Source: an uncultured Bdellovibrio sp.
Lineage (GTDB): Bacteria > Bdellovibrionota > UBA1018
Assembly (NCBI GenBank): GCA_964490895.1
Contig: CAZBEI010000065.1
Location: forward strand, 1,192 to 65,191
Length of the DNA: 64,000 nucleotides
Direction: 5' to 3'
A model generated the notes under the pieces. That model saw only the letters and a program-made list of their open reading frames with translations. It did not search any database and was not told the DNA's origin. This document shows positions 35,955 through 56,087 of the stretch, piece by piece (the stretch's first letter is position 1; the number at the start of each line of letters is the position of its first letter). The translations under genes and the position numbers were made by a program.

Positions 35955-35965
35955 GAGTACTTATT

Positions 35966-38602: not shown

Positions 38603-39683
38603 ATGGCTATCCAATCAATTTCTTGGAGCCTTTTCTGACGGAGCGATTTTGATTCCTATGATCGCTGTGCTCTCTGCAAAGTCTGGATATAATATTAAAA
38701 CTCTACTCTTCAGTGCAGGGATTATTTATTGTGTGAGTGGAGCTTATTTTAAAATCCCAATGGCTGTGCAACCTCTAAAATCACTGGTGATCACGGCTCT
38801 TGCAATTCAAGCAAGTCTCACCGAAATTAGGCTAGTGGGAGCATTGATTGGACTACTTTGCCTGTTTTTGACTCTCTTTGATGCCAATGCACTTGCTAAA
38901 AAAGTACCCATTGAGCTGATACACGGGCTCCAAGTAGCATTGGGTGTTTTACTTATTTTACAAGGGTTTAGAGCTATCCACACAGAAGTGCTTGTTGTTT
39001 TAGTTGTTTTAGTTATTATTTACTATTTCTTCGAATTTCCGATTTTAGGCGTATTGGCTTGCCTTGGAATTTTATTCTCTTTCACACGCACACTACCCAT
39101 CCCTGGCAGCACAATCAATATAAACGGAAGTGAGTTTAGATTTTCAGTTATTATTTCACTTTTACTTCCGCAAATAATTCTGACACTCAGCAATTCAGTC
39201 ATTGGAACGTATCACGTTTCACAGTACTATTTTCCAAAAGGGGCAAGCAAAGTAACTCCCAAACGACTTTTAACTTCGATTGGGATTGGAAACATTTTGA
39301 CAGCCTTATTTGCGGGTCTCCCCTTTTGTCATGGCTCTGGTGGAATTACGGCACATTACTTGGGTGGAGCCAGACATTACATTTCAAACTTTATTGTAGG
39401 CTTTTTTCTAATTGGAGTATTCATTTTTCTCCAATTTTCTAAAAATTATTTTACCTTTCACTATCCTCCCATTCTTTTGTCAAGCTTGCTCATATCAGTA
39501 GGAGTTTTTCATATCAAATTAGCAAAAGAGACTTGGATTAAAAAAGAAAATGGCAAACCAACCCTCATGCTGATGGCTCTTACTGCACTGACAACACAAA
39601 ACTTACTCTACGCACTGGGGATTGGAATATTTCTAGAACTCATCAGTAAACGGATCTATAAATTGACAGGAGCACGCTCATGA
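38592..39683 (+). CDS. Polytopic membrane transporter embedded in the Moco cluster (possible molybdate/sulfate-family permease)
   Basis: 363 aa, about 10 TM helices. Position between mogA and moeA suggests molybdate uptake; family not securely identified. Confidence 0.5.
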   Translation: MKLKWLSNQFLGAFSDGAILIPMIAVLSAKSGYNIKTLLFSAGIIYCVSGAYFKIPMAVQPLKSLVITALAIQASLTEIRLVGALIGLLCLFLTLFDANALAKKVPIELIHGLQVALGVLLILQGFRAIHTEVLVVLVVLVIIYYFFEFPILGVLACLGILFSFTRTLPIPGSTININGSEFRFSVIISLLLPQIILTLSNSVIGTYHVSQYYFPKGASKVTPKRLLTSIGIGNILTALFAGLPFCHGSGGITAHYLGGARHYISNFIVGFFLIGVFIFLQFSKNYFTFHYPPILLSSLLISVGVFHIKLAKETWIKKENGKPTLMLMALTALTTQNLLYALGIGIFLELISKRIYKLTGARS

Positions 39684-40939
39684 TCACTTATGCACAAGCT
39701 TTAGAGATCATCTATGAAGCTGGAAATAAAAAAATATTAGGAACAGAAAAAATTTCAATAGAACTATCCATCGGAAGAGTCTTAGCGGAATCCATTTATA
39801 GCCCAGAGGATCTGCCAGGATTTGACAACTCAGCGATGGATGGTTTTTGTGTTGTCTCAAAAGAGACTCTCACCGCAAGTCAAGCTCACCCCATTGAGCT
39901 TTCAATTTTAGATACAATTGCAGCAGGGGACTCCAAGAAATTTGATCCAAGCACATTGGCTGAAAATCTTATCTGCTTCGAAATCATGACCGGAGCTCCT
40001 CTTCCTCATACGCAGTTTGATGCAGTGGTTAAGGTAGAAGATGTAAAGCGGTTGGGAAATAAAATCATATTGACCCGACCCATTCTCAGCAAAGAAAATG
40101 TTCGACATCAAGGTTCCGATACTCAGATGGGAACTTTAATCCTTGGATCTGGGACTCCACTCTCGCACCAACACTTACTCATGCTCGCAGCACTGGGCAT
40201 AAGCGAAGTTTCTGTATTTAAAAAGCTAAAACTAGCCCTTATTTCAACTGGAAAAGAACTGGCTCATTATACCGAAAAGGAGTTAAAACCAGGACAAATT
40301 AGAAATTCTACAGCGCCCTATTTATTGAGCCTACTAAACTCTCTGGGGTTTAACGTGACCTATATAGGAAACATCCAAGATGATCCGGGTTACTTCAAAA
40401 AAAAATGTGACAAAATTATTTTTGATGATTTTGATATTCTTCTTACAACGGGTGCTGTCTCTGTAGGGAAATTTGATTTCATCAAAGAAGTATTAACTCA
40501 AATGAAGACAGAAATTCTATTTCACAAATCTGCTATTCGACCTGGCAAGCCTATTCTGTTTGGCGAATTTTGCCACCTTGCCAGTCATCACTCTGTGTTT
40601 TTTGGGATGCCTGGAAATCCAATCTCAACGGCAGTTGGGGTGAGGTTTTTTTTAATTCCCTACCTGCGTTGTATCACAAAACAACCCATGGAGGCGCCTC
40701 TTTTGATTGAGCTTGAAAACGAAGTGAGAAAACCCAAAGACCTGCGCTGTTTTTATAAAGCTAAACTCACTATTGTCTCCTCAAAAGCTAAGGTGACTGT
40801 TTTACCTGGACAGGCCTCGTTTATGGTCAGCCCACTCTTAGAGTCAAGCGCTTGGGCTGTTCTTCCAGATAGCAAAGAGGTGTTCGAGCCTGGAGAAAAA
40901 ATCGATGTTTATCCATTATTACCCCAAACCTATTTTTAA
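39680..40939 (+). CDS. moeA: Molybdopterin molybdotransferase MoeA
   Basis: 419 aa. PGFDNSAMDGFCV and GGVSVG blocks. Confidence 0.85.
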   Translation: MITYAQALEIIYEAGNKKILGTEKISIELSIGRVLAESIYSPEDLPGFDNSAMDGFCVVSKETLTASQAHPIELSILDTIAAGDSKKFDPSTLAENLICFEIMTGAPLPHTQFDAVVKVEDVKRLGNKIILTRPILSKENVRHQGSDTQMGTLILGSGTPLSHQHLLMLAALGISEVSVFKKLKLALISTGKELAHYTEKELKPGQIRNSTAPYLLSLLNSLGFNVTYIGNIQDDPGYFKKKCDKIIFDDFDILLTTGAVSVGKFDFIKEVLTQMKTEILFHKSAIRPGKPILFGEFCHLASHHSVFFGMPGNPISTAVGVRFFLIPYLRCITKQPMEAPLLIELENEVRKPKDLRCFYKAKLTIVSSKAKVTVLPGQASFMVSPLLESSAWAVLPDSKEVFEPGEKIDVYPLLPQTYF

Positions 40940-40959
40940 ATTAAGCCAAGGAAAATAAA

Positions 40960-41226
40960 ATGATTAAAATAAAATTTCAATTTTTTGGTCTGTTAAAAAA
41001 GCAAATTCCAGCTCCTTTTATCGAAATGGAAGTCGAAGAAGGAATAAAACTAAACCAACTCGTCACAAGGCTTCTCAATGTATTAAAAAACGAAGGACAC
41101 TGCTTACTCAATATCTCTACTCTTGACGAGTGCGCTATTGCCAACGAATCAAGAGTACTAGATAAAAATGAAGCAATCCATGAGAGCTGCACTCTTTCAC
41201 TTTTGCCGCCAGTTTGTGGAGGTTAA
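40960..41226 (+). CDS. moaD: Molybdopterin synthase sulfur-carrier subunit MoaD-like
   Basis: 88 aa ending in Gly-Gly (VCGG). Confidence 0.65.
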   Translation: MIKIKFQFFGLLKKQIPAPFIEMEVEEGIKLNQLVTRLLNVLKNEGHCLLNISTLDECAIANESRVLDKNEAIHESCTLSLLPPVCGG

Positions 41227-41273
41227 GTATTTTGTTTAAATATAAAATAAAAATAACAAAAAAGCCGATAGAA

Positions 41274-41732
41274 ATGAGTAAAATCCTAGAGGAACTTCAA
41301 GACCCACGGAGTGGGGCCTCGACGCTCTTTGTTGGCTCTGTTCGCAATCAGAATCTCGGGCGAGTTGTAAAATCCGTTCACTACGAAGCTTTTGTTCCAC
41401 TTGCACTTAAAACCCTTGTTTTGATTTGTAAAAATGCAAAAAAACAGTTTAGCCCCAATAAAGAACTTCTTAAAATCGCCATCGTTCATCGGTTAGGAAA
41501 ACTCAGTGTTGGTGAAATGAGTGTCGCAATTGGCGTGGCAACGAAACATCGCGACGAGTCGTACAAAATATCGAGATTCATTATTGAAGAACTAAAAAAA
41601 CAGGTCCCCATTTGGAAAAAAGAACATTATGTAGACGGAGAAAGCGAGTGGCTTAAAGGACATGCACTTTGCAACAAAAACCATCGGCGTCGTGCTCATG
41701 GGCGGTCAATCGAGCAGAATGAAGTCTCCTAA
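41274..41732 (+). CDS. moaE: Molybdopterin synthase catalytic subunit MoaE
   Basis: Start taken at MSKILEEL; the track ORF starts at 41214. GASTLFVGSVRN and VAIGVATKHR blocks. Confidence 0.7.
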   Translation: MSKILEELQDPRSGASTLFVGSVRNQNLGRVVKSVHYEAFVPLALKTLVLICKNAKKQFSPNKELLKIAIVHRLGKLSVGEMSVAIGVATKHRDESYKISRFIIEELKKQVPIWKKEHYVDGESEWLKGHALCNKNHRRRAHGRSIEQNEVS

Positions 41733-42270
41733 GGAGGATCTCATCTTTCAAGGAAAAAAATGGATTGACCACCAACTCAGCACTCTTACAAAGACCCTCA
41801 AAGGGATTCCATCCTTTGTCGTTGTCAGTGGCAAACCAAAAGGCTACCCCTCAGTCAAAGATATCAAAAAAAACCTGGGACCGCTGGGTGGGATATATTC
41901 TGTGCTCAGAAATTTTTACCCTATTCTAAAGAATAGCTCTATTCTCTTTATTCCAATTGACATGCCATTTCTTTCCGAAAAATCACTCAAAAAATTAATT
42001 CAAGCTCCTGTGACTCAAAATATTGATTACATAGGTTTTAAATCATACGAACTTCCTTTTTTATTAAAAATATCTGAAAAAACAGTCAAATTGGCACAGT
42101 CCTTTTGTGATGACTCAATCTGCTCTCGCGATCGCTCGATCAAAAAATTTCTGGCGTGTTTGAATTCGCGTATCATTGGTGTTCCAAAACAACTGCAGTT
42201 TGAGTTCTGCAATATCAACACTCCCGAGGAATGGAAGCTACTTTATGAACATTCGATTATCTCCGAATGA
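41662..42270 (+). CDS. mobA: Molybdenum cofactor guanylyltransferase MobA
   Basis: N-terminal GVVLMGGQSSRM nucleotide-binding motif. Confidence 0.7.
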   Translation: MHFATKTIGVVLMGGQSSRMKSPKEDLIFQGKKWIDHQLSTLTKTLKGIPSFVVVSGKPKGYPSVKDIKKNLGPLGGIYSVLRNFYPILKNSSILFIPIDMPFLSEKSLKKLIQAPVTQNIDYIGFKSYELPFLLKISEKTVKLAQSFCDDSICSRDRSIKKFLACLNSRIIGVPKQLQFEFCNINTPEEWKLLYEHSIISE

Positions 42271-42619
42271 AATTCGATTTCGTTTTAAAAAAAATGAGCT
42301 TGAGAATCTATTAAAAACAGAAAAAATCGAAGAGACTCTCTTCTTTTCCAGAGAAATGGGTTTTAGTTACTGTGTTTTAATGAAACGAAATATTTCAGAA
42401 ATGGAGCTTTGTTTGTACCCCAATCAATTTGTATTGCATATCCATCCTCATCAGATAGAAACGTTATTAAACCAAGATCTAAGAAAAAACTCAGGTCTGT
42501 TTCAGGAAATTTATAGGGACGAAACAAATGTGTTAAAACTAAAAGTCGAGATTGATTTAGATCCTCACCCTTTTTCGAGGGGGCCTTTCCAGGCCGAAAA
42601 GCCGCCCTCAAGCGAATAG
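42245..42619 (+). CDS. Hypothetical small protein at the end of the Moco operon
   Basis: About 124 aa from MNIRLSPN. No recognised domain. Its 3' end overlaps the convergent moeB by 55 bp. Confidence 0.3.
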   Translation: MNIRLSPNEIRFRFKKNELENLLKTEKIEETLFFSREMGFSYCVLMKRNISEMELCLYPNQFVLHIHPHQIETLLNQDLRKNSGLFQEIYRDETNVLKLKVEIDLDPHPFSRGPFQAEKPPSSE

Positions 42620-43668
42620 ACATCTAGAATTCCCTTATTTTTTATGTCTAAAACAAGTTTTTTTGAGCTATTCCCTACTCCACAATAAAAGACATATTTT
42701 TTACCTAAATAGTGTATATTTTTAAGTTGCTCGTCATTGAGACAGAGAGACCCTGGGATACGACCCAACTTCCATTCGAGAGGACTTCTGAGATCAATCA
42801 AGACCAGGTGTTCTGTTTGCATGAGTGCAGTCAATTCTTTTTGTGCCAGTTCAAGGTTTTGAGTCTGAAATACCTCCAAAGGACTCTGCATTTTGCTTTG
42901 ACCTATATTTTGAAAAGAACAAGTCGTACAATTTGAATTTTTTTGAGTTTTAAAAATTGAAAAATTCATAGTTTGAGTGTCCATCACAAGAAGCTTATTT
43001 AATAATAATTCAAAAGGTGCTGGAGGACTGTCTTGAGACAAAATCCATTTTAAAGTTTCCAGGGCTAGTATAGATCCTAGGATACCTGCCACAGGACCTA
43101 AAATTCCAGTTTCAGAGCAATTAGGGACCCCTTCCTTTGGAGGCTCTGGGTAAAGACAACGGTAACAATTTCCTTTTCCGCCTCCTTTTTCTGGCCAAAA
43201 CAGCGACGCTCTCACCTCAAATTGGGAGAGAGCGCCGAAAACCCAAGGGGTATTCATTTTTGTGCAATAGTCATTGATTAAATATTTAGTGTCAAAGTTA
43301 TCTGTGCCATCAATAACAATATCATAACCAGAAAAGACATCCGCTACATTTTGTGAACTCAGCAAGTCCGGGTAAGTTTGAATTTCGACTTTAGAGTTGA
43401 GTTGAGTGAGTTTTTCTTTTGCAACCTCAGTTTTTAATTCTCCCTGATCTGATTCAGAATATAAAACTTGTCGATTTAAGTTTGATCTATCCACACGATC
43501 AAAATCTACTAGACCTATTTTTCCAATACCTGCTGCAACTAAATATTGAGATGCGGGCACGCCTAAGCCACCCACCCCAACACAAAGTACTTTAGCTTTC
43601 GAAATTTTTTCCTGGCCTTTTTCTCCTACCTCTTTGAGTAGAATTTGTTTTATGTAGCGCTGATCCAT
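42565..43668 (-). CDS. moeB: MoeB/ThiF-type adenylyltransferase with C-terminal rhodanese domain (MoeZ-like)
   Basis: GVGGLGVPASQYLVAAGIG nucleotide-binding fold, CxxC pairs, and a C-terminal rhodanese-like region with active-site Cys (YCGVGN). Confidence 0.75.
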   Translation of the reverse strand: MDQRYIKQILLKEVGEKGQEKISKAKVLCVGVGGLGVPASQYLVAAGIGKIGLVDFDRVDRSNLNRQVLYSESDQGELKTEVAKEKLTQLNSKVEIQTYPDLLSSQNVADVFSGYDIVIDGTDNFDTKYLINDYCTKMNTPWVFGALSQFEVRASLFWPEKGGGKGNCYRCLYPEPPKEGVPNCSETGILGPVAGILGSILALETLKWILSQDSPPAPFELLLNKLLVMDTQTMNFSIFKTQKNSNCTTCSFQNIGQSKMQSPLEVFQTQNLELAQKELTALMQTEHLVLIDLRSPLEWKLGRIPGSLCLNDEQLKNIHYLGKKYVFYCGVGNSSKKLVLDIKNKGILDVYSLEGGFSAWKGPLEKG

Positions 43669-43674: not shown

Positions 43675-45132
43675 TCAGCTTGTCTGGCCGCTTAAATAAG
43701 AAATTACATGGTGTGCCGTGTAAGATTGCTGTCCATGGGGAAGAAATTGCTTTAACTGAAGCAAATCATCCCCTGCAGTAAGAAGAGGTAGCTCTTGATA
43801 ACCATTTTTTTGAATTTGCCCAAGTCCGATGTTTGACATGAGTGCATTACACAAGCACTTCCGACCGACGGTGTCTTCGATCTTGCCGCCCTTGTGAACA
43901 TAGTCGTCAATAGGTTCTGCCGGGCAGCGATAGATCATACTTCCATCTGGACGATTTACGATTTGCCTGAGATAGCCGAGATCACACTTCCGAGAACGTG
44001 CTTGATACAAAGCACTTTCTGACAACGTCCCTTCTAGTGGAGCAATCTTAAACGGAAACCCCGTGGGTGATGCAAAAGGATCAGTAAAGACAGCCTCGGG
44101 TTTGGTAGGATTATTAAAACACCACTTTTCGATCACTGCTTTTCGTAAATGCTCCGACAAACCCGACTCGTTGCAAAACGCAAATGCGGTGCCAACCTGT
44201 ATGCCAGTTGCACCGACACTGAGCGCTTGCTGGAGTTTATCTGGAGATCCAAATGATCCTGCAAGCCAGAATGGAAGACCGATCTTTCGAATTGCCTCCA
44301 AGTCAGCTTCGTCCTTTGCACTGTAAATGGGTTCACCTCGTTCATTGAGTTGCAGAGGTCCTCTAGGTGGGGCGTTATGTCCTCCCGCCAAAGGACCTTC
44401 GATTATGAAACCATCTACCTTACCTGTAGATTTTCGAGCCAGATGTAGAGCTAGTGTAGCTGACGAAATAATCGCTAAAAACTTTGGCCTTATTAAGGAA
44501 GACCGAGCCATTTTTGGAAATACGTGCATCGGATCAAAGCTGATTCGAATGTCTGTGTCAGGATTAGACTCGGCAACTACGATCTTAATCGAGGCTTCAT
44601 TTTGCTCTGAAAATCTGTCCAAGACGCCAGGAATTTCGCGAGGAACACCTGCTCCCATGAGTACGTAATCTACCCCAGCAAGCATTGCACCATAGATACC
44701 AGGAAGATTCGAAGTTTGAAGTTTTTCTAGAAAGTTGATCCCAATAACTCCGTCGTGGCCTTCTTTTGCGAGAAAAACTTCAACAAAACTAGCAACCACA
44801 CTCAACTGCTGTAAAAAAAGAGGTGCACTCACCGAAGGAAGTGGGATCCTCTTATAGCCTTTTCCAAGAGAGCGGCCATTTTGCAGCCAAAAAGAGGAAA
44901 GAACCTGTTCGATAAGAACGCCATCAGGAAAGTGAGCAAGTGCCCGCCGCACGTGTCCTTCGGCGTCACTATCTTGAAGTCTGCGGATCAAAATCGTATT
45001 GATGCCTGTCCCAGATACCACTCCCAGTTGTCCGAGCGTAGAGACGGCCTTTGCTAGTCTCCAATCAGATACTCCGACACCCATGCCTCCTTGAATAATC
45101 AGCGGTAGACTCATATCCTTCCCATAACACAT
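43675..45132 (-). CDS. Nitronate monooxygenase / 2-nitropropane dioxygenase family flavoprotein (long form)
   Basis: N-terminal IIQGGMGVGVS motif and a TIM-barrel FMN-binding pattern. 485 aa. Confidence 0.7.
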   Translation of the reverse strand: MCYGKDMSLPLIIQGGMGVGVSDWRLAKAVSTLGQLGVVSGTGINTILIRRLQDSDAEGHVRRALAHFPDGVLIEQVLSSFWLQNGRSLGKGYKRIPLPSVSAPLFLQQLSVVASFVEVFLAKEGHDGVIGINFLEKLQTSNLPGIYGAMLAGVDYVLMGAGVPREIPGVLDRFSEQNEASIKIVVAESNPDTDIRISFDPMHVFPKMARSSLIRPKFLAIISSATLALHLARKSTGKVDGFIIEGPLAGGHNAPPRGPLQLNERGEPIYSAKDEADLEAIRKIGLPFWLAGSFGSPDKLQQALSVGATGIQVGTAFAFCNESGLSEHLRKAVIEKWCFNNPTKPEAVFTDPFASPTGFPFKIAPLEGTLSESALYQARSRKCDLGYLRQIVNRPDGSMIYRCPAEPIDDYVHKGGKIEDTVGRKCLCNALMSNIGLGQIQKNGYQELPLLTAGDDLLQLKQFLPHGQQSYTAHHVISYLSGQTS

Positions 45133-45252: not shown

Positions 45253-45627
45253 TCAAGCACAGCATGAAGGCTCTTCTGCTGAAGCACTTTGCCCAGATAC
45301 CGCTTCTTTATATGCTTTAAATGCTTTAATAGCCCACATTTCACCCACACAGCCACCCATAGTAGAGGCAATAGCTAAAAACTCACCAAGTTCTATTTCT
45401 GTAGTGCCAACTGCTACTGCGCGATGGATATAGTATTTAAAACATGGCTCACATCGAGCCGAGATAGCCCAAACCATCGCAGTGAGAATTTTAAATTTCT
45501 GAGGTACCTCACCATCTGAAAAGATTGCCTTCTTCCTCATTTGATCAATCAGTGCTGGGATTCCACTTGTGATTTTAGAAAAGTCCTTCATTAAGTTTAA
45601 GGCAGGATCAATTTTATTATAATCCAT
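45253..45627 (-). CDS. Carboxymuconolactone decarboxylase (CMD/AhpD-like) family protein
   Basis: 124 aa. CEPC redox motif. Last gene of the mer-like operon. Confidence 0.65.
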   Translation of the reverse strand: MDYNKIDPALNLMKDFSKITSGIPALIDQMRKKAIFSDGEVPQKFKILTAMVWAISARCEPCFKYYIHRAVAVGTTEIELGEFLAIASTMGGCVGEMWAIKAFKAYKEAVSGQSASAEEPSCCA

Positions 45628-45637
45628 AAGTCCTCCA

Positions 45638-45931
45638 TTAGTTTTCTATTTTTTTGCATTCTTGAGACGTTGCTTTATATCCCACATCGTTAATTGCTTT
45701 CTTAATAGCTTCTGCATTCGTTTGTGCGGGATCAAATTGAACAACTGCATTTTTCTTTTCAACAAAGACTTTGGCTACTTCAACGCCCTTAATCTTCTTC
45801 ACGGCAGCTTTCACCGTGATGCCACAGGTAGCGCAGGTCATCCCTTGTACATTATAACAAGCCTGCTCTGCCCTGGCTAAGCTTGCTACGTTGAGCATGC
45901 TTATAAAAACCAAGTATATTATTTTTCTCAT
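45638..45931 (-). CDS. merP: Periplasmic heavy-metal-binding protein, MerP-like (signal peptide + HMA domain)
   Basis: Start at MRKIIYLVF with RBS AAGGAGGGAG. GMTCATCGITV metal-binding loop. The track ORF extends upstream to 46012. Confidence 0.65.
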   Translation of the reverse strand: MRKIIYLVFISMLNVASLARAEQACYNVQGMTCATCGITVKAAVKKIKGVEVAKVFVEKKNAVVQFDPAQTNAEAIKKAINDVGYKATSQECKKIEN

Positions 45932-45942
45932 TTCTCCCTCCT

Positions 45943-46299
45943 TTAGGAAAAAAACCAGACAACCCACTGTGGGGAGGTTATTCCCAAGACAGCAACTGAA
46001 ACTCCAATCCAATAAAATATAACCATCTTTCTATATTTTTTGGGATCGGCACAAATGGACCCTGGTTCACAACTGTTACGTCTTCGATAAAGTGTAAAAC
46101 CAGCAACTCCAAAAAGCACTAAGACTAAAATTAACATGGGTACGCGGATCACATCAAATTTTGCCAGAGCTGCTGCACCAGATACTCCAAGAATTGTCAA
46201 AATGAGAGGACCTACACAACATAAAGGGACTAGCATAGAAGCAATAATTCCAGTTGTCACAAGCCATCCAGATTTATTTCCGACTTTGCTCTTGTTCAT
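45943..46299 (-). CDS. merT: MerT-like metal transport membrane protein
   Basis: TM1 Cys pair LVPLCCVGPL and cytoplasmic loop Cys pair SCEPGSIC as in MerT. About 118 aa from MNKSKVG. Confidence 0.6.
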   Translation of the reverse strand: MNKSKVGNKSGWLVTTGIIASMLVPLCCVGPLILTILGVSGAAALAKFDVIRVPMLILVLVLFGVAGFTLYRRRNSCEPGSICADPKKYRKMVIFYWIGVSVAVLGITSPQWVVWFFS

Positions 46300-46568
46300 C
46301 TCGTTCCAACTCCCGCTGCTCGCAGTTCCTTTTCGCTCACGGTACCACTTATACAGCAATCAAGAAGTCTACCGTCTACAACGATAGCAGGAACTTTTGT
46401 AATGCCATATTTTTTTGCTTTATCTCTACACTCATTGGTGGCACATCCAGCATTAAGGTCGTAGATTACGACATTGCATGATGAACATGCTATTTTTTTA
46501 ACTAGGGCCACAACGGGCTCACAAACCGGACAGCCAGAAGTGAAAACCTCAATTTTTCTATTAGCCAT
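46296..46568 (-). CDS. Thioredoxin/glutaredoxin-like small redox protein
   Basis: 90 aa. N-terminal CPVC motif. First gene after the merR-divergent promoter. Confidence 0.55.
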   Translation of the reverse strand: MANRKIEVFTSGCPVCEPVVALVKKIACSSCNVVIYDLNAGCATNECRDKAKKYGITKVPAIVVDGRLLDCCISGTVSEKELRAAGVGTR

Positions 46569-46674
46569 AATTTAGGACTCCTTCTATCATCAGCTTAACC
46601 CCTATACCCAAGTATAGGGTCAATAGAAATTATTTTCTTGGCCTTGTACCTATATATAGGGTTAGAATATAAGC

Positions 46675-47088
46675 ATGAGAAACGGTGTGTCTAAAACTTT
46701 AACTATTGGTCAACTAGCGAAGGCTGCTGATGTTAACATTCAAACCGTTCGTTTTTATGAAAGAAAAGGAATTTTAAAACCCCAAACACGACTAGAATCA
46801 GGCTATCGTATTTACAACGAAGACAGTCTTAGACGTCTTCGTTTTATTCGTCACGCAAAGGATTTGGGTTTTAGTCTTAATGAGATTCAAAGTCTCCTCA
46901 ATCTCAGGGTGCGTTCAGTAGAAAGTTGCAATCAAGTTAAATTGAAGGCTGAGCAAAAGCTGAAAGATGTTCAGCAAAAGATCGTCCAACTCAGAACGTT
47001 AGAACGAACCCTCAAGGGTCTCGTTTCTGATTGTGAAAATCGTGTCGTTTCAGACTGTTGCCCAATAATTAAAAAAATGGAAATCTAA
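46675..47088 (+). CDS. MerR-family metal-responsive transcriptional regulator
   Basis: N-terminal HTH (LTIGQLAKAADVNIQTVRFYERKGIL), coiled coil, and C-terminal Cys cluster CENRVVSDCCPI. Confidence 0.8.
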   Translation: MRNGVSKTLTIGQLAKAADVNIQTVRFYERKGILKPQTRLESGYRIYNEDSLRRLRFIRHAKDLGFSLNEIQSLLNLRVRSVESCNQVKLKAEQKLKDVQQKIVQLRTLERTLKGLVSDCENRVVSDCCPIIKKMEI

Positions 47089-47262: not shown

Positions 47263-50200
47263 TTAATTAGCCCTTGGCATCACTACCGAAGAAGAGGGAA
47301 CTACAGTTCCCTCTTTCATTTCAAACTTCCACTTCCAGATAAAGTAGATCGCTGGGTACACAAGAAGTTCTAGAGCGAAACTCGTTACGAGCCCTCCCAC
47401 CATGGGGGCAGCAATACGTCTCATCACGTCGCTGCCTGCTCCTGCAGCCCACATAATGGGTAGTAACCCCATAAATGCTGCCATGACCGTCATCATCTTT
47501 GGGCGTATCCTCTTGACGGCACCGTGTATGATAGCGTCACAGAGGTCTTCTTTTGTTTTCATTTGCCCAGCCTTAACTTTTTCTTCGTAAGCCAGATCGA
47601 GATAAAGGAGCATAAAGACTCCTGTCTCAGCATCCAAACCCATCAGAGCAATCATGCCCACCCATACGGCAATCGAAATATTGTATCCAAGCAAAAAAAG
47701 AAGCCACACACTCCCAATAACAGAAAAAGGTACCGCGAGCATTACAATGCCAGTTTTTATAATAGATTTTGTATTCATGTAGAGCAAAAGAGCAATCAGA
47801 AAAAGAGTCAGAGGTATGACAACCTTGAGGCGCTCCTTTACGCGAATCATATTTTCGAACTGTCCGCTCCAGACGAGATTATATCCTGTGGGCACTTTTA
47901 CTTTTTGTTCGACAACTTGCTTAGCTTCTTCTACATAACCGCCGATGTCTCTCCCAGCCATATCAACATAGACAAAACCAGCAAGAAGTCCGTTTTCGTT
48001 TCTGATCATCGATGGCCCTTCGACCATCTTAATGTCTGCAATCTGAGCCATTGGGATTTGAACTCCATTTGCTGCAGGAACAAGAACCCGCTTAAGTGCG
48101 TTGATATTATCTCTGAATTCTCTGGCGTATCGAATATTGATAGGATATCGCTCTCGACCCTCTATGGTTGAGGTGATGTTTTCACCTCCAACGGCAGAAC
48201 TGATAACCATTTGAGCTTCGTTGACAGAAATGCCGTATCTCGCAAGCTCATCACGATTTAAAACAAAATCTAAATAATATCCCCCTGCGGCTCTCTCAGC
48301 ATAAACGTTTCGAGTTCCACGAATCCCTCTGACCGCGGCTTCAATTTGTTCACTGGTGGCTTGTATGACTTTAAGATCAGGTCCCATGACTTTAATGCCG
48401 ATCGGGGTTCTGATTCCTGTAGAGAGCATGTCGATGCGGTTTTTGATGGGCATTGTCCAAATATTAGGGATTCCCGCAAATTTTAGTTTTTCATTCATTT
48501 CATTCTGGAGCTCATCAAATGTTTTATGAGGTGGAGTAGTCCAAGAAAAGAGTGGATACATAAATTGAGGGAGCCACGTGTACCATCGCTTGACGTGAGG
48601 CCATTCTGCTACAGGCTTCAGAACAACAGTCGTTTCGACCATCGAAAAAGGAGCAGGATCTGTAGGTGTTTCAGCACGTCCTGCTTTACCAAAAACACTT
48701 TTGACTTCTCCAAATTCTTTAATGAGCTTGTCTTGAATTTGCAAAATACGCTCGGCTTCTGTAACAGACATTCCGGGAAATGCTGTTGGCATATAAAGAA
48801 AAGCTCCCTCATTGAGAGGCGGCATGAACTCTGAGCCTAACTTCATGTAAATTGGTATCGTGGACAAAACTAGAATCACTGCTGCGGTAATTACTTGTTT
48901 GGGATACTTGAGAACAAAGTGAACTGCCGGTTCATAATATTTGAAAAGAACCCGGCTAATAGGATGCTTTTCTTCGGGGTAGTATTTGCCAACGAGGATC
49001 TGATTACCCAGCCAAATGATTTTTTTTCTTAAAAATTCGACCTGGTGATAAAACTTTGGGAGAACTCTAGTCAATGGTGAGTAGACAAAATAATCCATTC
49101 TTGTGAACATCATGCGAAGGGCAGGGTCAACCGTTACGGCAAGAAGAGCTGCTAAAGCCATTGCCAAAGTTTTTGAAAAAGCAAGCGGAGTAAAGAGTCT
49201 TCCCTCTTGATCTACCAAAGTAAAAACAGGCAAAAACGAAACAGCGATAACAAGGAGAGAAAAAAATACAGAGGGCCCTACTTGTTTAAGAGCATTTAAG
49301 CGAACTTCGTGAAAATCGCCCTTTCTTCCTGTAGAATTCCACTCCTCAAGTTTCTTATAAGCATTTTCGACTTCCACTATGGCCCCATCCACCAAAACAC
49401 CAATAGAAATAGCAATTCCAGCCAAAGACATGATGTTAGTCGTAAGCCCCAAGAAGTACATGGGGATAAAGGCTAGGAAAACTGAAATCGGAATGGTAAC
49501 AATAGGGACTGTTGCCGAAGGGATATGCCACAAAAAAAGAAGTATGACAAAGCTCACAATGATTACCTCAAGCTTTAGTTCATGCTTGAGAGTGTCGATG
49601 GCTCTTGTGATCAGATCAGAACGGTCATAGACAGGAACGATTTTTAATCCCGGAGGAAGACTTGGTTTTATTTCTTCGAGTTTTTCTTTTACTCGATTGA
49701 TAACATTAAGAGCATTTTCTCCTTGGCGCATGACAACGATGCCACCAACAGCGTCTCCCATCCCATTGAGATCAGTGACACCTCTCCTGATATCAGGACC
49801 TAGTTCCACGTTGGCTAAGTGTTTAACCAGTATAGGAACACCTGTTTTGGGATCATGTCCCACTACGACTTTTTCAATATCACTTTTTTGCTTAATATAT
49901 CCACGGCCACGAACCATGTATTCGGTGCCAGCAAATTCGAGCACCCTTCCACCCGTATCGCTATTGCCCTTTCGGACGGAGTCCACAAGCTGTGTGAGAG
50001 TCATCCCATAAGAAATAAGACGGTTGGGATCTACGTTAATTTGGTACTGTTTTACAAATCCTCCCACAGAGGCCACCTCCGCAACTCCGGGAACAGATTG
50101 CAGGTGGAATTTTAGCTGCCAATCTTGGATACTTTTCATTTGAGCAAGATTGAGATGATCTGACTCATCAATAAGGGCGTATTGGTAGACCCAACCCACA

Positions 50201-50601
50201 CTTGTGGCATCAGGGCCAATTTCTGTTTTGACCCCTTCGGGAAGTCTTGGCAGGATTTTACTTAGATATTCTATAACGCGTGACCTTGCCCAATAGAGAT
50301 CAGTTCTGTCTTCAAAAATAACATAGACATAGGAGTATCCAAAATCTGATAACCCTCGAACAGTTTTTATTTTTGGTGCGCCCAAAAGAGCTGTAACAAT
50401 GGGATAAGTGACTTGATCTTCGAGTATGTCTGGTGACCTATCCCATCTTGAATAAATAATGACCTGCGTATCAGATAAATCTGGAATCGCATCCAGAGGG
50501 ATATGTCTCACACACCACCACGCTCCTACCATGGCTACACCAGTGAGGATAAAAACGAGCAATTTATTTTTTGCACTCCACTCAATGAGGTTTTCAATCA
50601 T
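47263..50601 (-). CDS. cusA: Heavy-metal efflux RND transporter, CusA/CzcA family
   Basis: 1112 aa, 12 TM helices, two large periplasmic loops. HME-RND family. Confidence 0.9.
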   Translation of the reverse strand: MIENLIEWSAKNKLLVFILTGVAMVGAWWCVRHIPLDAIPDLSDTQVIIYSRWDRSPDILEDQVTYPIVTALLGAPKIKTVRGLSDFGYSYVYVIFEDRTDLYWARSRVIEYLSKILPRLPEGVKTEIGPDATSVGWVYQYALIDESDHLNLAQMKSIQDWQLKFHLQSVPGVAEVASVGGFVKQYQINVDPNRLISYGMTLTQLVDSVRKGNSDTGGRVLEFAGTEYMVRGRGYIKQKSDIEKVVVGHDPKTGVPILVKHLANVELGPDIRRGVTDLNGMGDAVGGIVVMRQGENALNVINRVKEKLEEIKPSLPPGLKIVPVYDRSDLITRAIDTLKHELKLEVIIVSFVILLFLWHIPSATVPIVTIPISVFLAFIPMYFLGLTTNIMSLAGIAISIGVLVDGAIVEVENAYKKLEEWNSTGRKGDFHEVRLNALKQVGPSVFFSLLVIAVSFLPVFTLVDQEGRLFTPLAFSKTLAMALAALLAVTVDPALRMMFTRMDYFVYSPLTRVLPKFYHQVEFLRKKIIWLGNQILVGKYYPEEKHPISRVLFKYYEPAVHFVLKYPKQVITAAVILVLSTIPIYMKLGSEFMPPLNEGAFLYMPTAFPGMSVTEAERILQIQDKLIKEFGEVKSVFGKAGRAETPTDPAPFSMVETTVVLKPVAEWPHVKRWYTWLPQFMYPLFSWTTPPHKTFDELQNEMNEKLKFAGIPNIWTMPIKNRIDMLSTGIRTPIGIKVMGPDLKVIQATSEQIEAAVRGIRGTRNVYAERAAGGYYLDFVLNRDELARYGISVNEAQMVISSAVGGENITSTIEGRERYPINIRYAREFRDNINALKRVLVPAANGVQIPMAQIADIKMVEGPSMIRNENGLLAGFVYVDMAGRDIGGYVEEAKQVVEQKVKVPTGYNLVWSGQFENMIRVKERLKVVIPLTLFLIALLLYMNTKSIIKTGIVMLAVPFSVIGSVWLLFLLGYNISIAVWVGMIALMGLDAETGVFMLLYLDLAYEEKVKAGQMKTKEDLCDAIIHGAVKRIRPKMMTVMAAFMGLLPIMWAAGAGSDVMRRIAAPMVGGLVTSFALELLVYPAIYFIWKWKFEMKEGTVVPSSSVVMPRAN

Positions 50602-51806
50602 TTTAGTTTTTGCAGTACCCCACGTAATTTTGATTCAGAATCAATGAGAAAATTGGCCGATGTGACAACCACATCACTCTCCTTAAGCCCTGAGAGTACT
50701 TCGTAATAATCATCTGTTCTAACGCCAACTTTTATGGGCTGGGGCTCGAAACGTCCCTTGTCATTGACAAGAAAAACAAAAGATTGTTGTTCAGAATGCA
50801 TCACTGAGTTTTCAGGCACTACAAGTCGTTTACCTAAATCCACTTTGATCCTGACATTCAAGAAGGTATCTGGCCTGAGCAGACCTTCTGTGTCGGGAAC
50901 TAGGGCTCTGAGACGAACAGTTCTTGTTGGAGAATTTACAACCGGGCTTATGCTTGAGATTTTACCGTGAAATGTTTTACCGGGAATGGATGGGGACTCG
51001 GCCTCTACTTCTGCCGAAGCACTTAGCCCCGCGACTTCATATTCGAAAACTTCTGCGTATACCCACACAGAACCGCTGGGTAAAAGCAGGTTGAGTGAAT
51101 TACTCCCTCCCTTCGAAAGACCACGGATTTGAGTGTCTCCTAACCCCAGCAGCCGGAGCTTTGTTTTAGCAGATGTGATGAGTTCATTGGCTTGCTTTTG
51201 CAGTCCAGGATAAGAATTTCCCTCCATCTGAGACCTTGCAGTCACAGCCTGTTGATATTCTTCGATTGCTATGTATAAATCAGGATCAAAAGCAACTCGC
51301 CCGCTAGCCTTTACCTCACGATTTAATTGCTTAAACTCCACTTTTGCTTTTGTTACACCAATGAGCTGCTGTCTTTCGGATGATAATGTAAAACTCCCTC
51401 GGCCCTCCACTTGAGTTGATCCATTTTCCTCAACCTCGTCCGAATAGACAGCTACATAATCCATTCCCATATTGTCCTTAGTTGGTGCGGGCGAAGTAAC
51501 TTTTGGATCCATAGGATTTCTGTAATAGAGAACCTTTCTTTCGTTTTTGTCAGAAGGTTTGTCAGAAGGTTTGTCAGAAGGTGTGTCAGCTGTGGCCCCA
51601 TCGTCTACTTTTTGTAAATCCATGTGACAAACTGGGCATTGATCTGGATGATCCGAAATTACCGAAGGATGCATGGGGCAACTGTAAACTGTTTTTGGAG
51701 CTCTTCCGTGTCCAGCTGACTCCTGGAATTTTTTTTTGGCAATGATATAACCACCCATACCAAAAACAAGGGCAAAGGACGTACATAAAGCCAAAATTTT
51801 TTTCAT
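50598..51806 (-). CDS. cusB: RND efflux periplasmic adaptor (CusB/CzcB-like) with N-terminal metal-binding CPMHP..CPVCHM motif
   Basis: Signal/TM anchor, a YSCPMHPSV....CPVCHMDL finger-like motif, beta-barrel/lipoyl membrane-fusion-protein domains. Contains a (PSDK)x3 repeat. Confidence 0.8.
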   Translation of the reverse strand: MKKILALCTSFALVFGMGGYIIAKKKFQESAGHGRAPKTVYSCPMHPSVISDHPDQCPVCHMDLQKVDDGATADTPSDKPSDKPSDKNERKVLYYRNPMDPKVTSPAPTKDNMGMDYVAVYSDEVEENGSTQVEGRGSFTLSSERQQLIGVTKAKVEFKQLNREVKASGRVAFDPDLYIAIEEYQQAVTARSQMEGNSYPGLQKQANELITSAKTKLRLLGLGDTQIRGLSKGGSNSLNLLLPSGSVWVYAEVFEYEVAGLSASAEVEAESPSIPGKTFHGKISSISPVVNSPTRTVRLRALVPDTEGLLRPDTFLNVRIKVDLGKRLVVPENSVMHSEQQSFVFLVNDKGRFEPQPIKVGVRTDDYYEVLSGLKESDVVVTSANFLIDSESKLRGVLQKLK

Positions 51807-53122
51807 TTTAGACTCTCTCCTAGTGGCTCGCCCAACAAGGCTTCTAGTTCAGCAATTTTAGATTCATAGTTTACCAGTGCTTCGTAATAGGACAACTCTG
51901 TTTGAAAACGAGTTTTTATGAGATTAAGGAGAGACGCATACTCAATTTTACCTGTAGAATAAGCTAATTTGCCACTCTGTGTAGACTGCTCAGCAAGGGG
52001 TAGCAGTCCCCCACCAAATAAACTCAGTCGTTTGTTAGCTTCTTGTAGTTCTGAAAAAATCGTGTGAACGCTATGAAGAATATGGTTTCTTTCTTCGTTT
52101 AACAGGGCGTCAGACTTTGCTTCTTGAGCTCTTGCGCCTTTAACCTCCTCTGATTGCTTGCTAAAGGTCCAAATAGGAAGTGACATAAAAACTCCACCTG
52201 AGACAAGACTTACACCTCGATCACCAGGACTTGGCTGTCTCTTTGTGTAGGAAACTTTGAATTCAAAATCAGGAAGATAGTTCCACTTTGCATAAGAGAG
52301 TTTAGTTTCAGCAGACTCAAGCAGAGCTCTCGCTGATTTGATACTAGGATTTTTAGAAATAATTTTTTCTGCTAAAATTTTCTCATTTATTGCTGAAAAA
52401 TTAATGGAGGTTTTTTTGATTTCTTCAGGTTTACCAATTTCATGATGACTGGGTCTTCCTAAGATATGATTTAAATCCCCGGTTTTAGTTTGAATCAGTC
52501 TTTCAGCACTAAACAAATGATCTGTAAACGCGGCCTCCTCAAGCTGTACACTGAGAAGCTCAGCTAGAGTGATTTTGCCAAGAGAATTTCGACTGCGAGT
52601 CACTGCAACCATCTGTTTCATCACTCCCAATTGTTCGTGAGTGATGTCTTCCCTTTTATATGCTAAAAATAACTCATAGTAGGCAAGCCGCACATCTTTA
52701 ATGAGTTGCAATTGTTGATTATTAAAATTTTCTTTTTTGGAGTTGTATTCGTGGGTTGTGGCTCTGCTCAACTTTGTGAGCTTTCCCGGAAATGGTATTT
52801 TCTGAGTAATACTCAGCTGGTTCCCAGTCATTCCAAACTCTCTTGAACTCAAAGTATCGGCTGGATAATTCATTGCCTCAAATCCAATCATTGGATCCTC
52901 ATAAGCACCTCTCGGCCCTATCTCCGCTTCCTTGGAAAGAGCTTCATATTTTGATGCCTTAAGTAGTAGATTATTATCTAAAGCTTCTTGAATAACGTCT
53001 TTGAGTCTTATAGAGTCTTGGGCCAGGCCTTTGACCGATGGTAAAGCAGCCCCAAAAAGAAAACAACCAAAAAGAAAACAATAAGATAGCCAAAATAAAT
53101 TAAACCGGGTGTTAAATACCAT
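51803..53122 (-). CDS. cusC: Outer-membrane efflux protein (TolC/CusC family)
   Basis: 439 aa, signal peptide, two coiled-coil repeats. Overlaps cusB by 4 nt. Confidence 0.8.
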   Translation of the reverse strand: MVFNTRFNLFWLSYCFLFGCFLFGAALPSVKGLAQDSIRLKDVIQEALDNNLLLKASKYEALSKEAEIGPRGAYEDPMIGFEAMNYPADTLSSREFGMTGNQLSITQKIPFPGKLTKLSRATTHEYNSKKENFNNQQLQLIKDVRLAYYELFLAYKREDITHEQLGVMKQMVAVTRSRNSLGKITLAELLSVQLEEAAFTDHLFSAERLIQTKTGDLNHILGRPSHHEIGKPEEIKKTSINFSAINEKILAEKIISKNPSIKSARALLESAETKLSYAKWNYLPDFEFKVSYTKRQPSPGDRGVSLVSGGVFMSLPIWTFSKQSEEVKGARAQEAKSDALLNEERNHILHSVHTIFSELQEANKRLSLFGGGLLPLAEQSTQSGKLAYSTGKIEYASLLNLIKTRFQTELSYYEALVNYESKIAELEALLGEPLGESLK

Positions 53123-53227: not shown

Positions 53228-53932
53228 CTACAAACTAGTCACAATACCTAGCAAAAAAGAATGACCAGAGAAATTCTCGCCAGTGACTGGAGAAAATATG
53301 TGACGATAATCAACCATCAATTGAGTTTTATCCGTACCCATCCAAGCAAGGTTATGGCGGATACCGAGCGTCGCATGATAAGCCAACGAACCTCCTCGTC
53401 TCTGAGCTCCGTCAAGGTCTGAAGACTGTAAATAGGTGTAATATCCCACCCCAAGTTCAACGACTGGCATCGCCCATTTCATTATTGGAGCATAGTCTCC
53501 CAAGTAGACTAACCCAAAAGTCAGCGGTAACAGTGAGAGCCGACTGGGGCCTGCGGGTATGCCATCTGCGAAGCTTGCGTTGCCTATGTGTGAACTGTAA
53601 CCCAAGTCTACCCGTACACCCCAGCTTCCGAGAAATGTAATCGGAGTCGTTTCCCAGCCGATTTCTAAAGCAAACGCGGAATCATTTTTAGGATAATAAA
53701 AATTATAAGCGTCTCCAGTTAAGGTTGTTCCATTGAGCGATCTTGTTCCGATTTGAAATTGTAAGGTAGAAAAATGACTTGAGTCAGCTGAGGACAATTG
53801 CTCTAGGTAAACGACGTTTTGAGAGGACTTCGAAGCTCCTGGATCTAGAAGTAGGGGCAATTTTTCATTCCCAGCAGCCAATGACCCAGCAGCCGATAGA
53901 GCAACAAAACTCATTACGAGAACCCGATTCAC
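53228..53932 (-). CDS. Small outer-membrane beta-barrel protein
   Basis: Signal peptide, eight or more amphipathic strands, aromatic-rich C-terminus. Confidence 0.45.
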   Translation of the reverse strand: MNRVLVMSFVALSAAGSLAAGNEKLPLLLDPGASKSSQNVVYLEQLSSADSSHFSTLQFQIGTRSLNGTTLTGDAYNFYYPKNDSAFALEIGWETTPITFLGSWGVRVDLGYSSHIGNASFADGIPAGPSRLSLLPLTFGLVYLGDYAPIMKWAMPVVELGVGYYTYLQSSDLDGAQRRGGSLAYHATLGIRHNLAWMGTDKTQLMVDYRHIFSPVTGENFSGHSFLLGIVTSL

Positions 53933-55266: not shown

Positions 55267-56087
55267 TTCTGCATTGTGACTCGTCCCACTTTTCCGAGTC
55301 CATCGGTATACAAGTCTCCCTCCGCTGTTGCATCGTAGGACATATACCCCTTAAAAGTAAGACCGTAGTTTTCGGTTTTAGCGGTCAAAAACCGACTGTA
55401 AGAATTAAACTGTACGTCCGTAAATTTTATTTCTATGTATTCTAGAGAATTGAAACTTCCAAGATACAATCTCAAATTTCCATTAATTGCTAACTTCGGT
55501 GTAGGGCCAGAGAGATCTTGGGTTGCAACAAATGACATTGTCAATCTTTCCGGAAGACTGGATTGGGGATTTGTGTTTGCAAGTATACCACGATAATATC
55601 CAGACAACTCTTTGACGTTTGTTGATGCAAGCGGTGGAACAGGAAAGTTGTCTTTTGTTGCTATAAATTTTCCAACCCGACCGACAATCGAAGAATACCA
55701 GTCCCCCTCAATTTGGCCCCCCTTAAGAATGGCTACGGCACTCACATCGCTTCCGTCGTTGGTAAATACCAGTTGTCCAGTGATGGGATTAAGGGGCACG
55801 TTCGCAAATTCGTAAGTTAGAAACTCATTCGAATCGGCTGCGCCAAAGATAATCCTCATATTAGCAGAAATTTTGAATTCTCCGCTCGGATTTGTTGTTT
55901 TTAAGGTGATCAGTCCGAACTGATAATAGTTAGTACCTTCATGCTGAAAGATAACCTTATAAAGTCCCGCAACTGAACTCACGTCCTGCGAGATAGCATA
56001 TTGAGAAAAGACAAGGGCAACCAAAAAAGTCGCTGAAAAAATTAAACGAGCCAAAGCTGAGCGTGACACTAATATAAAACGAAACAT
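55257..56087 (-). CDS. Secreted protein with two copies of the same novel module (paralog 2 of 3)
   Basis: Start at MFRFIL with RBS GAAGGGGGG. Blocks MRIIFGAADSNEFLTYEFANVPLNPITGQLVFT and LRLYLGSFNSLEYIEIKFTDVQFNSYSRFLTAKT. Confidence 0.5.
   Translation of the reverse strand: MFRFILVSRSALARLIFSATFLVALVFSQYAISQDVSSVAGLYKVIFQHEGTNYYQFGLITLKTTNPSGEFKISANMRIIFGAADSNEFLTYEFANVPLNPITGQLVFTNDGSDVSAVAILKGGQIEGDWYSSIVGRVGKFIATKDNFPVPPLASTNVKELSGYYRGILANTNPQSSLPERLTMSFVATQDLSGPTPKLAINGNLRLYLGSFNSLEYIEIKFTDVQFNSYSRFLTAKTENYGLTFKGYMSYDATAEGDLYTDGLGKVGRVTMQKWP

Follow-up and report, generated by a model that had tools for sequence, protein, structure and literature searches.

The textbook account of bacterial mercury resistance, import followed by reduction by MerA, describes the mer operons of Tn501 and Tn21, in which the genes are ordered merR-merT-merP-merA-merD. 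In a survey of mer genes, about half of the MerB-encoding genomes had no MerA (PMC8261052). Plasmid pMOL30 of Cupriavidus metallidurans CH34 carries a cluster (Rmet_5990-5992) that the passages devoted to it in two publications catalogue as merRTΔP, with the mechanism 'HgTra' and the function '?', and describe as truncated (PMC2864759, PMC6266692). In another setting, the SAO system has been proposed to traffic mercury-like metal species into the cell, and its thioredoxin-fold component SaoT is overloaded with cysteine and selenocysteine (Haft and Gwadz, bioRxiv 10.1101/2022.07.06.499078). Here we analyse a five-gene mer-type module without merA, located at positions 45253-47088 of a stretch of 64,000 nucleotides from an uncultured Bdellovibrio sp. 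(assembly GCA_964490895.1, contig CAZBEI010000065.1, positions 1,192 to 65,191; the whole stretch is called the window).

We lean, with modest confidence, towards the view that this is a functional MerR-controlled module for mercury-type capture and hand-off, which works without a mercuric reductase of its own. It probably represents an unrecognised form of intracellular mercury handling rather than a broken operon, because the same design recurs in many phyla. Its distinguishing parts are two small cysteine-rich cytoplasmic proteins, one with a thioredoxin fold and one with the fold of the carboxymuconolactone decarboxylase (CMD)/AhpD family. In the open-access literature, we found no account of either family as a mer component.

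Organization of the module

The regulatory gene merR (46675-47088, plus strand; 137 amino acids (aa); Pfam MerR_1 69.8 bits and MerR-DNA-bind 67.6 bits, the MerR model being matched as well) is divergent from an operon of four genes on the minus strand. The first of these, trx-like (46296-46568; 90 aa; Thioredoxin_3 31.9 bits), codes for a thioredoxin-like (Trx-like) protein with a CPVC motif. It is followed by merT (45943-46299; 118 aa; MerT 73.9 bits), which encodes an inner-membrane transporter with a CC pair in its first transmembrane segment and a cytosolic C-x5-C loop, and by merP (45638-45931; 97 aa; HMA 52 bits), which encodes a periplasmic protein with a signal peptide and a GMTCATC motif. 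The last gene (45253-45627; 124 aa; CMD 38.1 bits) encodes a CMD/AhpD-fold protein with a CEPC motif, hereafter CMD-CC. All five genes pass the Pfam gathering scores; the arrangement and the motifs given in an earlier, sequence-only reading of this DNA are thus confirmed by the open reading frames (ORFs) and their Pfam matches. The stop codon of trx-like is shared with the start of merT in an ATGA overlap, and the remaining gaps of 11 and 10 nucleotides (nt) each hold a GGAG-type ribosome-binding site. Both merT and merP start at internal ATG codons, the longer ORFs opening with TTG not being the true starts.

The operon contains none of merA, merB, merD and merE. The ORFs of the whole 64-kb window were searched by iterated profiles, with a pyridine-nucleotide-disulfide oxidoreductase as the query; this gave no match, hence no merA-like flavoprotein, in agreement with the earlier statement that merA and merB are missing. 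Nor does a merA stand directly outside the module, which is bounded by cusA (47263-50601, convergent with merR) on one side and by an NMO-like gene (43675-45132) on the other. The 120-nt gap past the operon contains no predicted terminator. Two genes downstream, the NMO-like one and that for MoeB/rhodanese, were considered as further operon members and rejected, being conserved beside the module in no related locus.

As an equivalog test, the proteins were scored with NCBIfam models and the scores compared with the curated whole-protein cutoffs. The best models for MerR, MerT and MerP were those of the mer families, so that the assignments of MerT and MerP hold on profile search, yet all three proteins fall below the cutoffs: 130.4 bits against 150.85 for MerR (TIGR02051), 58.8 against 150 for MerT (NF010314) and 72.7 against 92.55 for MerP (TIGR02052). 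The cysteine pairs of MerT are kept in 54-56 of 57 related MerT proteins and the CxxC of MerP in 51 of 52. Beside GMTCATC, MerP of the window has a second Cys pair, formed by its mature N-terminus (...EQAC) and its C-terminus (...QEC), which recurs in 18 of the 52 relatives. The module and its flanks are most similar to sequences from metagenome-assembled genomes of Bdellovibrionales and Pseudobdellovibrionaceae, with CMD identities of up to 88%. One of them (locus L014) shares approximately 74-75% nucleotide identity with the window across the module and also has trx, cus-type efflux and bufferin genes nearby.

In common with Tn501 and Tn21, the module has a divergent three-Cys MerR, a long-spacer promoter with a 7/8-4-7/8 dyad, a MerT with CC and C-x5-C and a periplasmic MerP with GMTCxxC. 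It differs from them in the lack of merA, merD and merE, in the addition of one Cys-rich cytoplasmic protein before merT and another after merP, in component scores below the equivalog cutoffs and in its operator half-site, CCCTATAC instead of TCCGTAC. Judged by its anatomy, the cluster of the window corresponds to a Tn501-type mer operon in its front half and has every defining feature of such an operon except MerA.

Regulator and promoter

The sequence-only reading had regarded the C-terminus of the regulator as non-classical. This was mistaken: by alignment the closest solved relatives are genuine MerR proteins, 5CRL (Tn501) and 4UA1 (Bacillus), and Cys85, Cys120 and Cys129 fall on their three Hg(II) ligands with an identical C-x8-C-P spacing. 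In Tn501 MerR, these ligands are C82, C117 and C126. The three cysteines are invariant in the regulators of related modules (55 of 55), and an additional C128 is the sole oddity of the window protein.

The promoter of the structural operon (46592-46623, minus strand) is of the MerR type, with a -35 element TTGACC (46623-46618), a 20-nt spacer and a -10 element TAAGCT (46597-46592). Within the spacer lies the operator dyad CCCTATAC-N4-GTATAGGG (46600-46619), an 8-4-8 repeat (I2) with 100% complementarity. A scan for promoters with standard spacers of 16-18 nt misses this promoter, as expected for a long spacer. Directly before the first codon of merR is a second palindrome, CCTATATATAGG (46649-46660; I3, 6+6 nt, 100% complementary). 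With its likeness to the operator half-sites, it is a candidate site of merR autoregulation. Strict pattern matching detected TTGAnn-N19/20-TAnnnT promoters with perfect merO-like dyads in 28 related loci, and many of these dyads, including those of Proteobacterial modules, are the canonical merO TCCGTAC-N4-GTACGGA or near variants of it. By these sequence features, the regulator and promoter are classical MerR in design.

In this Bdellovibrionota lineage, the substance sensed and handled by the module could also be a thiophilic metal or metalloid other than Hg (Cd, Pb, Zn, Cu/Ag, Au or As), a possibility that the sequence-only reading had entertained. The regulator stays below the MerR cutoff, and the ZntR, CueR and CadR/PbrR models score 125-102 bits on it, near the 130 bits of the MerR model. 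PbrR has the same three-Cys spacing (cf. 5GPE among the structure matches of the regulator), and the half-site CTATAC is nearer to the pbr operator than to a GTAC-type merO. The neighbouring cusCBA genes, the bufferin genes (a copper-related class of ribosomally synthesized and post-translationally modified peptides) and extracytoplasmic function (ECF) sigma factors found near related modules, and an NCBIfam family in which CMD-type domains are fused to ArsM also point in this direction. However, monovalent-metal sensors such as CueR have Ser in place of the first ligand Cys, which is invariant here, and the Hg-type motifs of MerT and MerP are complete. Another soft metal is further disfavoured by the canonical merO of the orthologous Proteobacterial modules and by the occurrence of both accessory families inside bona fide mer operons with equivalog-level MerA. 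We consequently regard this explanation as unlikely.

The CMD-CC and thioredoxin-like proteins

CMD-CC has no signal peptide and is thus predicted to be cytoplasmic. It combines the CEPC motif (C59, C62) with C93 and E96 in the sequence GGCVGEMW and with a disordered acidic tail, ...EEPSCCA, containing C122 and C123. Of the 120 best homologues, all have CEPC and 119 have two adjacent cysteines in the final ten residues; in two lineages of the family, C-G-C replaces CC. An alignment of 28 sequences shows C59, C62, C93, C122 and C123 to be invariant, likewise E60, P61, E96, W98 and K101, and even distant relatives retain CEPC, GC(V/P)GE.W and the C-terminal CC. A search against 1.84 billion representatives returned few clusters at 50% identity, seven of them at E<1e-30.

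With AhpD of Mycobacterium tuberculosis and small CMD proteins such as Legionella Lpg0406 (5DIK) and TM1620, CMD-CC shares an all-helical fold, the MGG motif and the position of the CxxC at the start of the same helix. The profile alignment to Lpg0406 has an E-value of 3.6e-13. The AlphaFold model is a six-helix CMD fold with a predicted local distance difference test (pLDDT) score of 87.5; confidence is low over the last 14 or so residues, as expected of a flexible tail, and the nearest structures found by Foldseek are the small CMD proteins 5DIK, 1P8C and 1VKE. The fold and the CxxC are therefore those of the AhpD family (PF02627), but the catalytic residues are not. An invariant Tyr66 stands where 5DIK has the catalytic His of AhpD (CxxCxxxH, four residues past the second Cys), and the sequence has no Glu 12 residues before C59, the position of the proton-relay Glu in the AhpD motif. 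Relative to 5DIK, the MGG motif is interrupted by Cys93, an insertion specific to this family. CMD-CC is further set apart by Glu96, by its disordered tail with a Cys pair and by its partners, which are mer proteins and not AhpC; neither an AhpC partner nor a lipoamide relay was found in the operon, to which the search was confined.

The tail ...EEPSCCA resembles the C-terminus ...LSCCAG of MerA proteins from related loci. In MerA, the flexible tail (Cys558/Cys559) and the NmerA domain take Hg(II) from other thiols and deliver it to a buried Cys pair. We propose the same job for the ...SCC(A/x) terminus of CMD-CC, which in contrast to that of MerA is attached to an unrelated fold free of flavin. 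CMD-type domains were also encountered in a different guise: two large proteins, P0206 and P0217 (1161 and 852 aa), have N-terminal hydrophobic stretches, an ...LPQTG... sequence near the C-terminus and six CMD-profile stretches each, and look like cell-wall-anchored surface proteins with multiple CMD domains.

The Trx-like protein, also devoid of a signal peptide and hence presumably cytoplasmic, has eight cysteines in four pairs (CPVC, CSSC, C-x4-C and a vicinal CC). Conservation among 81 database homologues is high: CPxC and P60 are found in 81, CxSC in 80, the vicinal CC in 79-80 and C-x4-C in approximately 70. Its closest solved relatives are 1FO5 and 2HLS. It shares the thioredoxin fold, the CxxC and the cis-Pro with the MJ0307-type thioredoxins, but scores only 33.5 bits with the model of that family (TIGR00411, cutoff 92.75), and its six extra conserved cysteines are absent in MJ0307-type thioredoxins such as 1FO5. 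The AlphaFold model (pLDDT 75.7) has a thioredoxin fold and retrieves generic thioredoxins only.

SaoT is similarly a small MJ0307-related thioredoxin-fold protein with extra cysteines, encoded in a gene cluster rich in CC and CU pairs. It belongs, however, to a separate family with the extra cysteines elsewhere; the window protein has no selenocysteine, and the SAO system, found in Firmicutes and other anaerobes, has a different regulator and different partners (a MerB-like protein, an ABC transporter and a DsrE-like protein). The metallochaperone ArsD, a relative of which (3KTB) is among the weak fold matches, likewise uses vicinal cysteines on a thioredoxin fold to bind a soft metalloid and hand it off, but only the general fold is common to the two proteins, whereas Cys motifs and partners differ.

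In four sampled genomic contexts (Geobacter, Elusimicrobia, Acidobacteria and one other), the Trx-like gene always adjoins MerR plus MerC or MerT, and no merA was found within 4 kb of it. A scan of metagenomes for the family gave 78 loci, many of them short, with adjacent MerR in 49, MerT or MerC in 34, CMD-CC in 17, MerA in six and a flavoprotein with a CALRGC motif in six. The operon types include MerR-Trx-MerT-MerP-CMD, the same followed by MerA, and MerR-Trx-CMD-flavoprotein. The Trx-like protein and CMD-CC are a recurrent pair, and each is found with and without merA. Genes for SAM-dependent methyltransferases (UbiE/Methyltransf_11 or TehB-like) lie a few genes from trx-like in three of the four contexts (Geobacter, Elusimicrobia and Acidobacteria; loci L092-L097).

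A CMD/AhpD fold and a thioredoxin fold, both with CxxC, could suggest a module against peroxide or disulfide stress, in which an AhpD-type peroxidase and a thioredoxin have borrowed mer transport parts, as the sequence-only reading also proposed. We consider this highly improbable. Tyr66 takes the place of the AhpD catalytic His, the six extra cysteines of the Trx-like protein have no counterpart in MJ0307-type thioredoxins, the operon has no AhpC partner and the regulator is a three-Cys metal sensor and not of the SoxR/NmlR type.

Recurrence across bacteria

A scan for CMD-CC with one genome per species yielded 78 loci, of which 75, the window and 74 strong matches, were counted. Within 2.5 kb of the CMD-CC gene, MerT is encoded in 57 of these loci, MerR in 55 and MerP in 52; 60 have MerT or MerP and 44 have all three, so that a merR-merT-merP-CMD setting is the predominant one for the family. 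The hosts belong to Bdellovibrionota, Alpha-, Beta- and Gammaproteobacteria, Acidobacteriota, Planctomycetota, Chlamydiia, Zixibacteria and other groups. The order merR-merT-merP-CMD with intact ORFs is found in dozens of species from several phyla, and we propose a class of mer variants with this order. The window has all its marks: CEPC, Cys93/Glu96, the C-terminal Cys pair and a three-Cys MerR.

The pMOL30 cluster has the same plan, merR divergent from merT-merP-CMD. Its CMD protein is 60% identical to that of the window, with CEPC and a C-terminal SCCQ. It differs from the window in having no Trx-like gene, a disrupted merP frame and a canonical merO, and complete mer operons are present elsewhere in CH34. 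The descriptions of the cluster in the relevant passages of PMC2864759 and PMC6266692 make no mention of the adjacent CMD gene. On the evidence of gene order and family motifs, the window cluster belongs to a widespread unnamed merR-merT-merP-CMD class that includes merRTΔP, and conservation across the modules argues that the pMOL30-type cluster is a functional class and not debris.

This conservation bears directly on the idea that such clusters are decaying classical mer operons which have lost merA and are adjoined by an unrelated CMD gene by chance. The idea accords with the 'truncated merRTΔP' label and the function '?' in the passages cited for pMOL30, with the disruption of the pMOL30 merP frame near the signal peptide and with the presence in the window of a decayed second copy of the module (see below). 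It is nevertheless already contradicted by the conservation data, and we give it hardly any credence: the four-gene order is intact in dozens of species and several phyla, the window holds five intact coupled genes with an intact promoter, and CMD-CC retains its own specific features, among them a CC tail like that of MerA, along with the mer context.

Several CMD-CC genes are linked to merA itself. CMD-CC lies directly 3' of merA in the loci L061 (Acidobacteriota), L065 and L074 (Zixibacteria), where MerA scores 473-532 bits with TIGR02053 (cutoff 454). In L062, merA (541 bits with TIGR02053) is divergent from merR-CMD, and in L144 CMD-CC stands 5' of an unscored MerA with an SCCAT tail. The MerA proteins encoded beside CMD-CC or Trx-like lack NmerA in nine cases and have it in four, a count that is suggestive only, the background rate not being known. 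A simple substitution of NmerA by CMD-CC was considered, but in view of this count without a background rate we did not rely on it.

A second neighbour is a flavoprotein (PYR) of 447-469 aa with the CALRGC motif, without a C-terminal CC and without NmerA. It is encoded downstream of CMD-CC, adjacent or within approximately 1.5 kb, in five further genome loci, where its length is 447-468 aa. Like MerA, PYR has a Tyr where glutathione reductase and lipoamide dehydrogenase carry their catalytic His; the second Tyr of MerA is missing from the flavoproteins that accompany CMD-CC. In one of four sampled contexts (L180), the CALRGC flavoprotein takes the position of merA in a MerR-MerT/HMA operon, and in another its gene diverges from a MerT/HMA cluster of the ArsR type. 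The protein is a candidate MerA-like enzyme that has so far escaped recognition. Members of this family of approximately 450 aa, with CALRGC and a 'FAYPT' sequence replacing the His-Glu dyad, were noted in loci L029, L032, L036, L066, L082, L121, L139, L146, L149, L151, L180 and L181, and their source annotations are glutathione reductase or NAD(P)/FAD-dependent oxidoreductase. A DedA-fused flavoprotein is present near the module in several relatives from Bdellovibrionota and Oligoflexales. No flavoprotein of this kind is within reach in 29 of the 39 loci that have at least 8 kb on both sides, and the merA-less state of the window is the common state.

The presence of these flavoproteins raises the question of whether CMD-CC is itself the detoxifying enzyme that replaces MerA, with either the Trx-like protein or a MerA-like flavoprotein devoid of the C-terminal Cys pair recycling it. 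Its activity could be that of a two-component or flavin-remote Hg(II) reductase, or it could process Hg-S or Hg-C bonds. MerR-Trx-CMD-PYR and merR-merT-merP-CMD-PYR operons recur, PYR has the MerA-like Tyr and has been seen both in the merA position (one context in four) and divergent from the ArsR-type cluster, and CMD-CC has invariant acidic residues beside its cysteines (C59-E60 and C93-x-x-E96). In M. tuberculosis, moreover, a relay that depends on Lpd recycles AhpD, a precedent for a partnership between AhpD and a flavoprotein. However, PYR is not encoded in the 64-kb window, 29 of the 39 well-covered loci have no PYR-type flavoprotein in reach, and CMD-CC co-occurs with complete MerA, beside which a second reductase would be redundant. 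To our knowledge, no dithiol-driven reduction of Hg(II) has been described, and by our own estimate it would be thermodynamically marginal. An enzymatic replacement of MerA consequently appears doubtful.

A still bolder and, in our opinion, somewhat less probable version would make CMD-CC the catalytic heart of a new cytoplasmic mercury detoxification pathway: a dithiol enzyme of the AhpD fold, fed by its tail, which would process Hg(II) or an organomercurial and would be recycled by the 8-Cys Trx-like protein or the tail-less MerA-like flavoprotein. If true, this would amount to a split or alternative mercuric reductase and would explain the many mer-type uptake operons and MerB-encoding genomes without merA.

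Other genes recur around the CMD-CC loci. A conserved protein of 203-223 aa with no Pfam or NCBIfam match is encoded 3' of CMD-CC, directly or past one merP, in L025, L029, L032, L036 and L038 (for example, L038 2602-3270); these are Methylocella-type loci and one Gemmataceae locus, and the gene usually has CMD-CC on one side and, on the other, a second merP or the flavoprotein. Bufferin sets (a BufA2 precursor, an MbnB/DUF692 enzyme and a DUF2063 partner), ECF sigma factors and YceI are found repeatedly a few kilobases from the modules of Bdellovibrionota (L014 5307-7474; L021, L023, L024 and others). On the Legionella plasmid NZ_CP021280.1 (L013), DUF692- and DUF2063-type genes lie directly 5' of CMD-CC.

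Proposed mechanism and significance

Returning to the capture and hand-off module that we favour, MerR would act on the dyad within the over-long 20-nt spacer, and a thiophilic divalent metal, most likely Hg(II), bound at the three-Cys site would switch on trx-merT-merP-CMD. According to the established mer mechanism, the defining residues of which are present here, periplasmic MerP would take up the metal, which would then pass from the CC pair of MerT to its cytosolic C-x5-C loop. CMD-CC and the 8-Cys Trx-like protein may then replace MerA as cytoplasmic acceptors, stripping Hg(II) off MerT by thiol ligand exchange and so shielding the cellular thiols. The Cys-Cys tail of CMD-CC could swing Hg(II) into a pocket formed by CEPC and Cys93, much as the MerA tail feeds the MerA active site. 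Possible end-points are an inducible sink, transfer to a MerA or MerA-like flavoprotein encoded elsewhere, or chemistry performed by CMD-CC. The notion of a thiol-based import and handling module, put forward in the sequence-only reading, fits this scheme and is retained.

Several points weigh against such a scheme. MerR, MerT and MerP are divergent members of their mer families, because all of them score below the NCBIfam equivalog cutoffs, and the operator half-site CCCTATAC of the window departs from the canonical merO. The neighbours are of a copper/silver type, with cusCBA in the window and bufferin clusters in relatives. The conserved residues of CMD-CC other than cysteine (E60, P61, E96, W98 and K101) are more enzyme-like than sponge-like. 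In Escherichia coli, MerT and MerP without MerA cause hypersensitivity to Hg, and a stoichiometric sink is costly. The absence of merA refers to the 64-kb window, a part of the genome, and we infer Hg(II) as the inducer, Hg binding by the accessory proteins and the transfer from protein to protein.

If the proposal is correct, the textbook sequence of import and MerA reduction is challenged by a complete sensor-import unit, kept in several phyla, whose cytoplasmic end-point is another one; since the end-point differs, the cells must cope with imported Hg(II) in another way. Two families so far annotated only as 'carboxymuconolactone decarboxylase family protein' and 'thioredoxin family protein' gain a specific, testable link to mercury handling, and merRTΔP of pMOL30 looks like a member of a functional class instead of a truncated operon. 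The finding also bears on the question raised by the survey of mer genes, that of the fate of imported Hg(II) without MerA (PMC8261052), and environmental surveys that count merA alone would miss these systems.

Genomic surroundings

The cusA gene converging on merR belongs to a cus-type resistance-nodulation-division (RND) efflux system, together with a CusB-like adaptor with an N-terminal heavy-metal-binding domain (50598-51806) and an outer-membrane efflux protein (OEP; 51803-53122). Of the related loci, 11 have an RND pump gene near the module, 11 an adaptor gene and 7 an OEP gene. Upstream of the cus genes and on the same strand are three ORFs without a Pfam match (53228-56108).

On the other side of the module lies a molybdoenzyme cluster (30267-43668) comprising a 1224-aa ORF, a 410-aa ORF, an EB_dh-type gamma subunit and a NarJ-like chaperone. 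The same region holds genes of molybdenum cofactor and molybdate metabolism: MoaA, a MoaC/MoCF-domain fusion, a MOT1-type molybdate transporter, MoeA, MoaE, MobA and a MoeB-rhodanese fusion. By its gene content, the cluster resembles the type II dimethyl sulfoxide reductase family, which includes the selenate, chlorate and perchlorate reductases. L067 and L074, like the window, have genes for MoeA and a MOT1-type transporter close to the module. Because these genes are not in the same order, we put their proximity down to coincidence.

The decayed second copy of the module is split between positions 1671-2858 and 15837-16022 of the window. A 3' remnant of merR (1801-2034, plus strand) covers residues 60-137 with 79% identity to the intact regulator and abuts a remnant of the 3' half of trx-like (1811-1671, minus strand; residues 44-90, 83% identical), a deletion having apparently removed the 5' ends of both together with the shared promoter. 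Directly past the merR remnant is an intact gene for a MerC-HMA fusion (2040-2858, plus strand; 272 aa). The CMD-CC remnant (15837-16022, minus strand), 14 kb from the others, is internally deleted but keeps CEPC and an ...EEPSCCV tail, and its DNA is 84% identical to the intact gene. Directly upstream of it stands another gene of the CMD family (16023-16619, minus strand; 198 aa) with an HCSFC motif, and a multicopper-oxidase/cupredoxin-like gene (14804-15829, plus strand) adjoins these two; the genes of the 14804-16619 region look like a further metal or redox-stress patch. Near the decayed mer copy, the gene of an AbiEi-type antitoxin (3262-3834) hints that the DNA here belongs to a segment that is variable or mobile.

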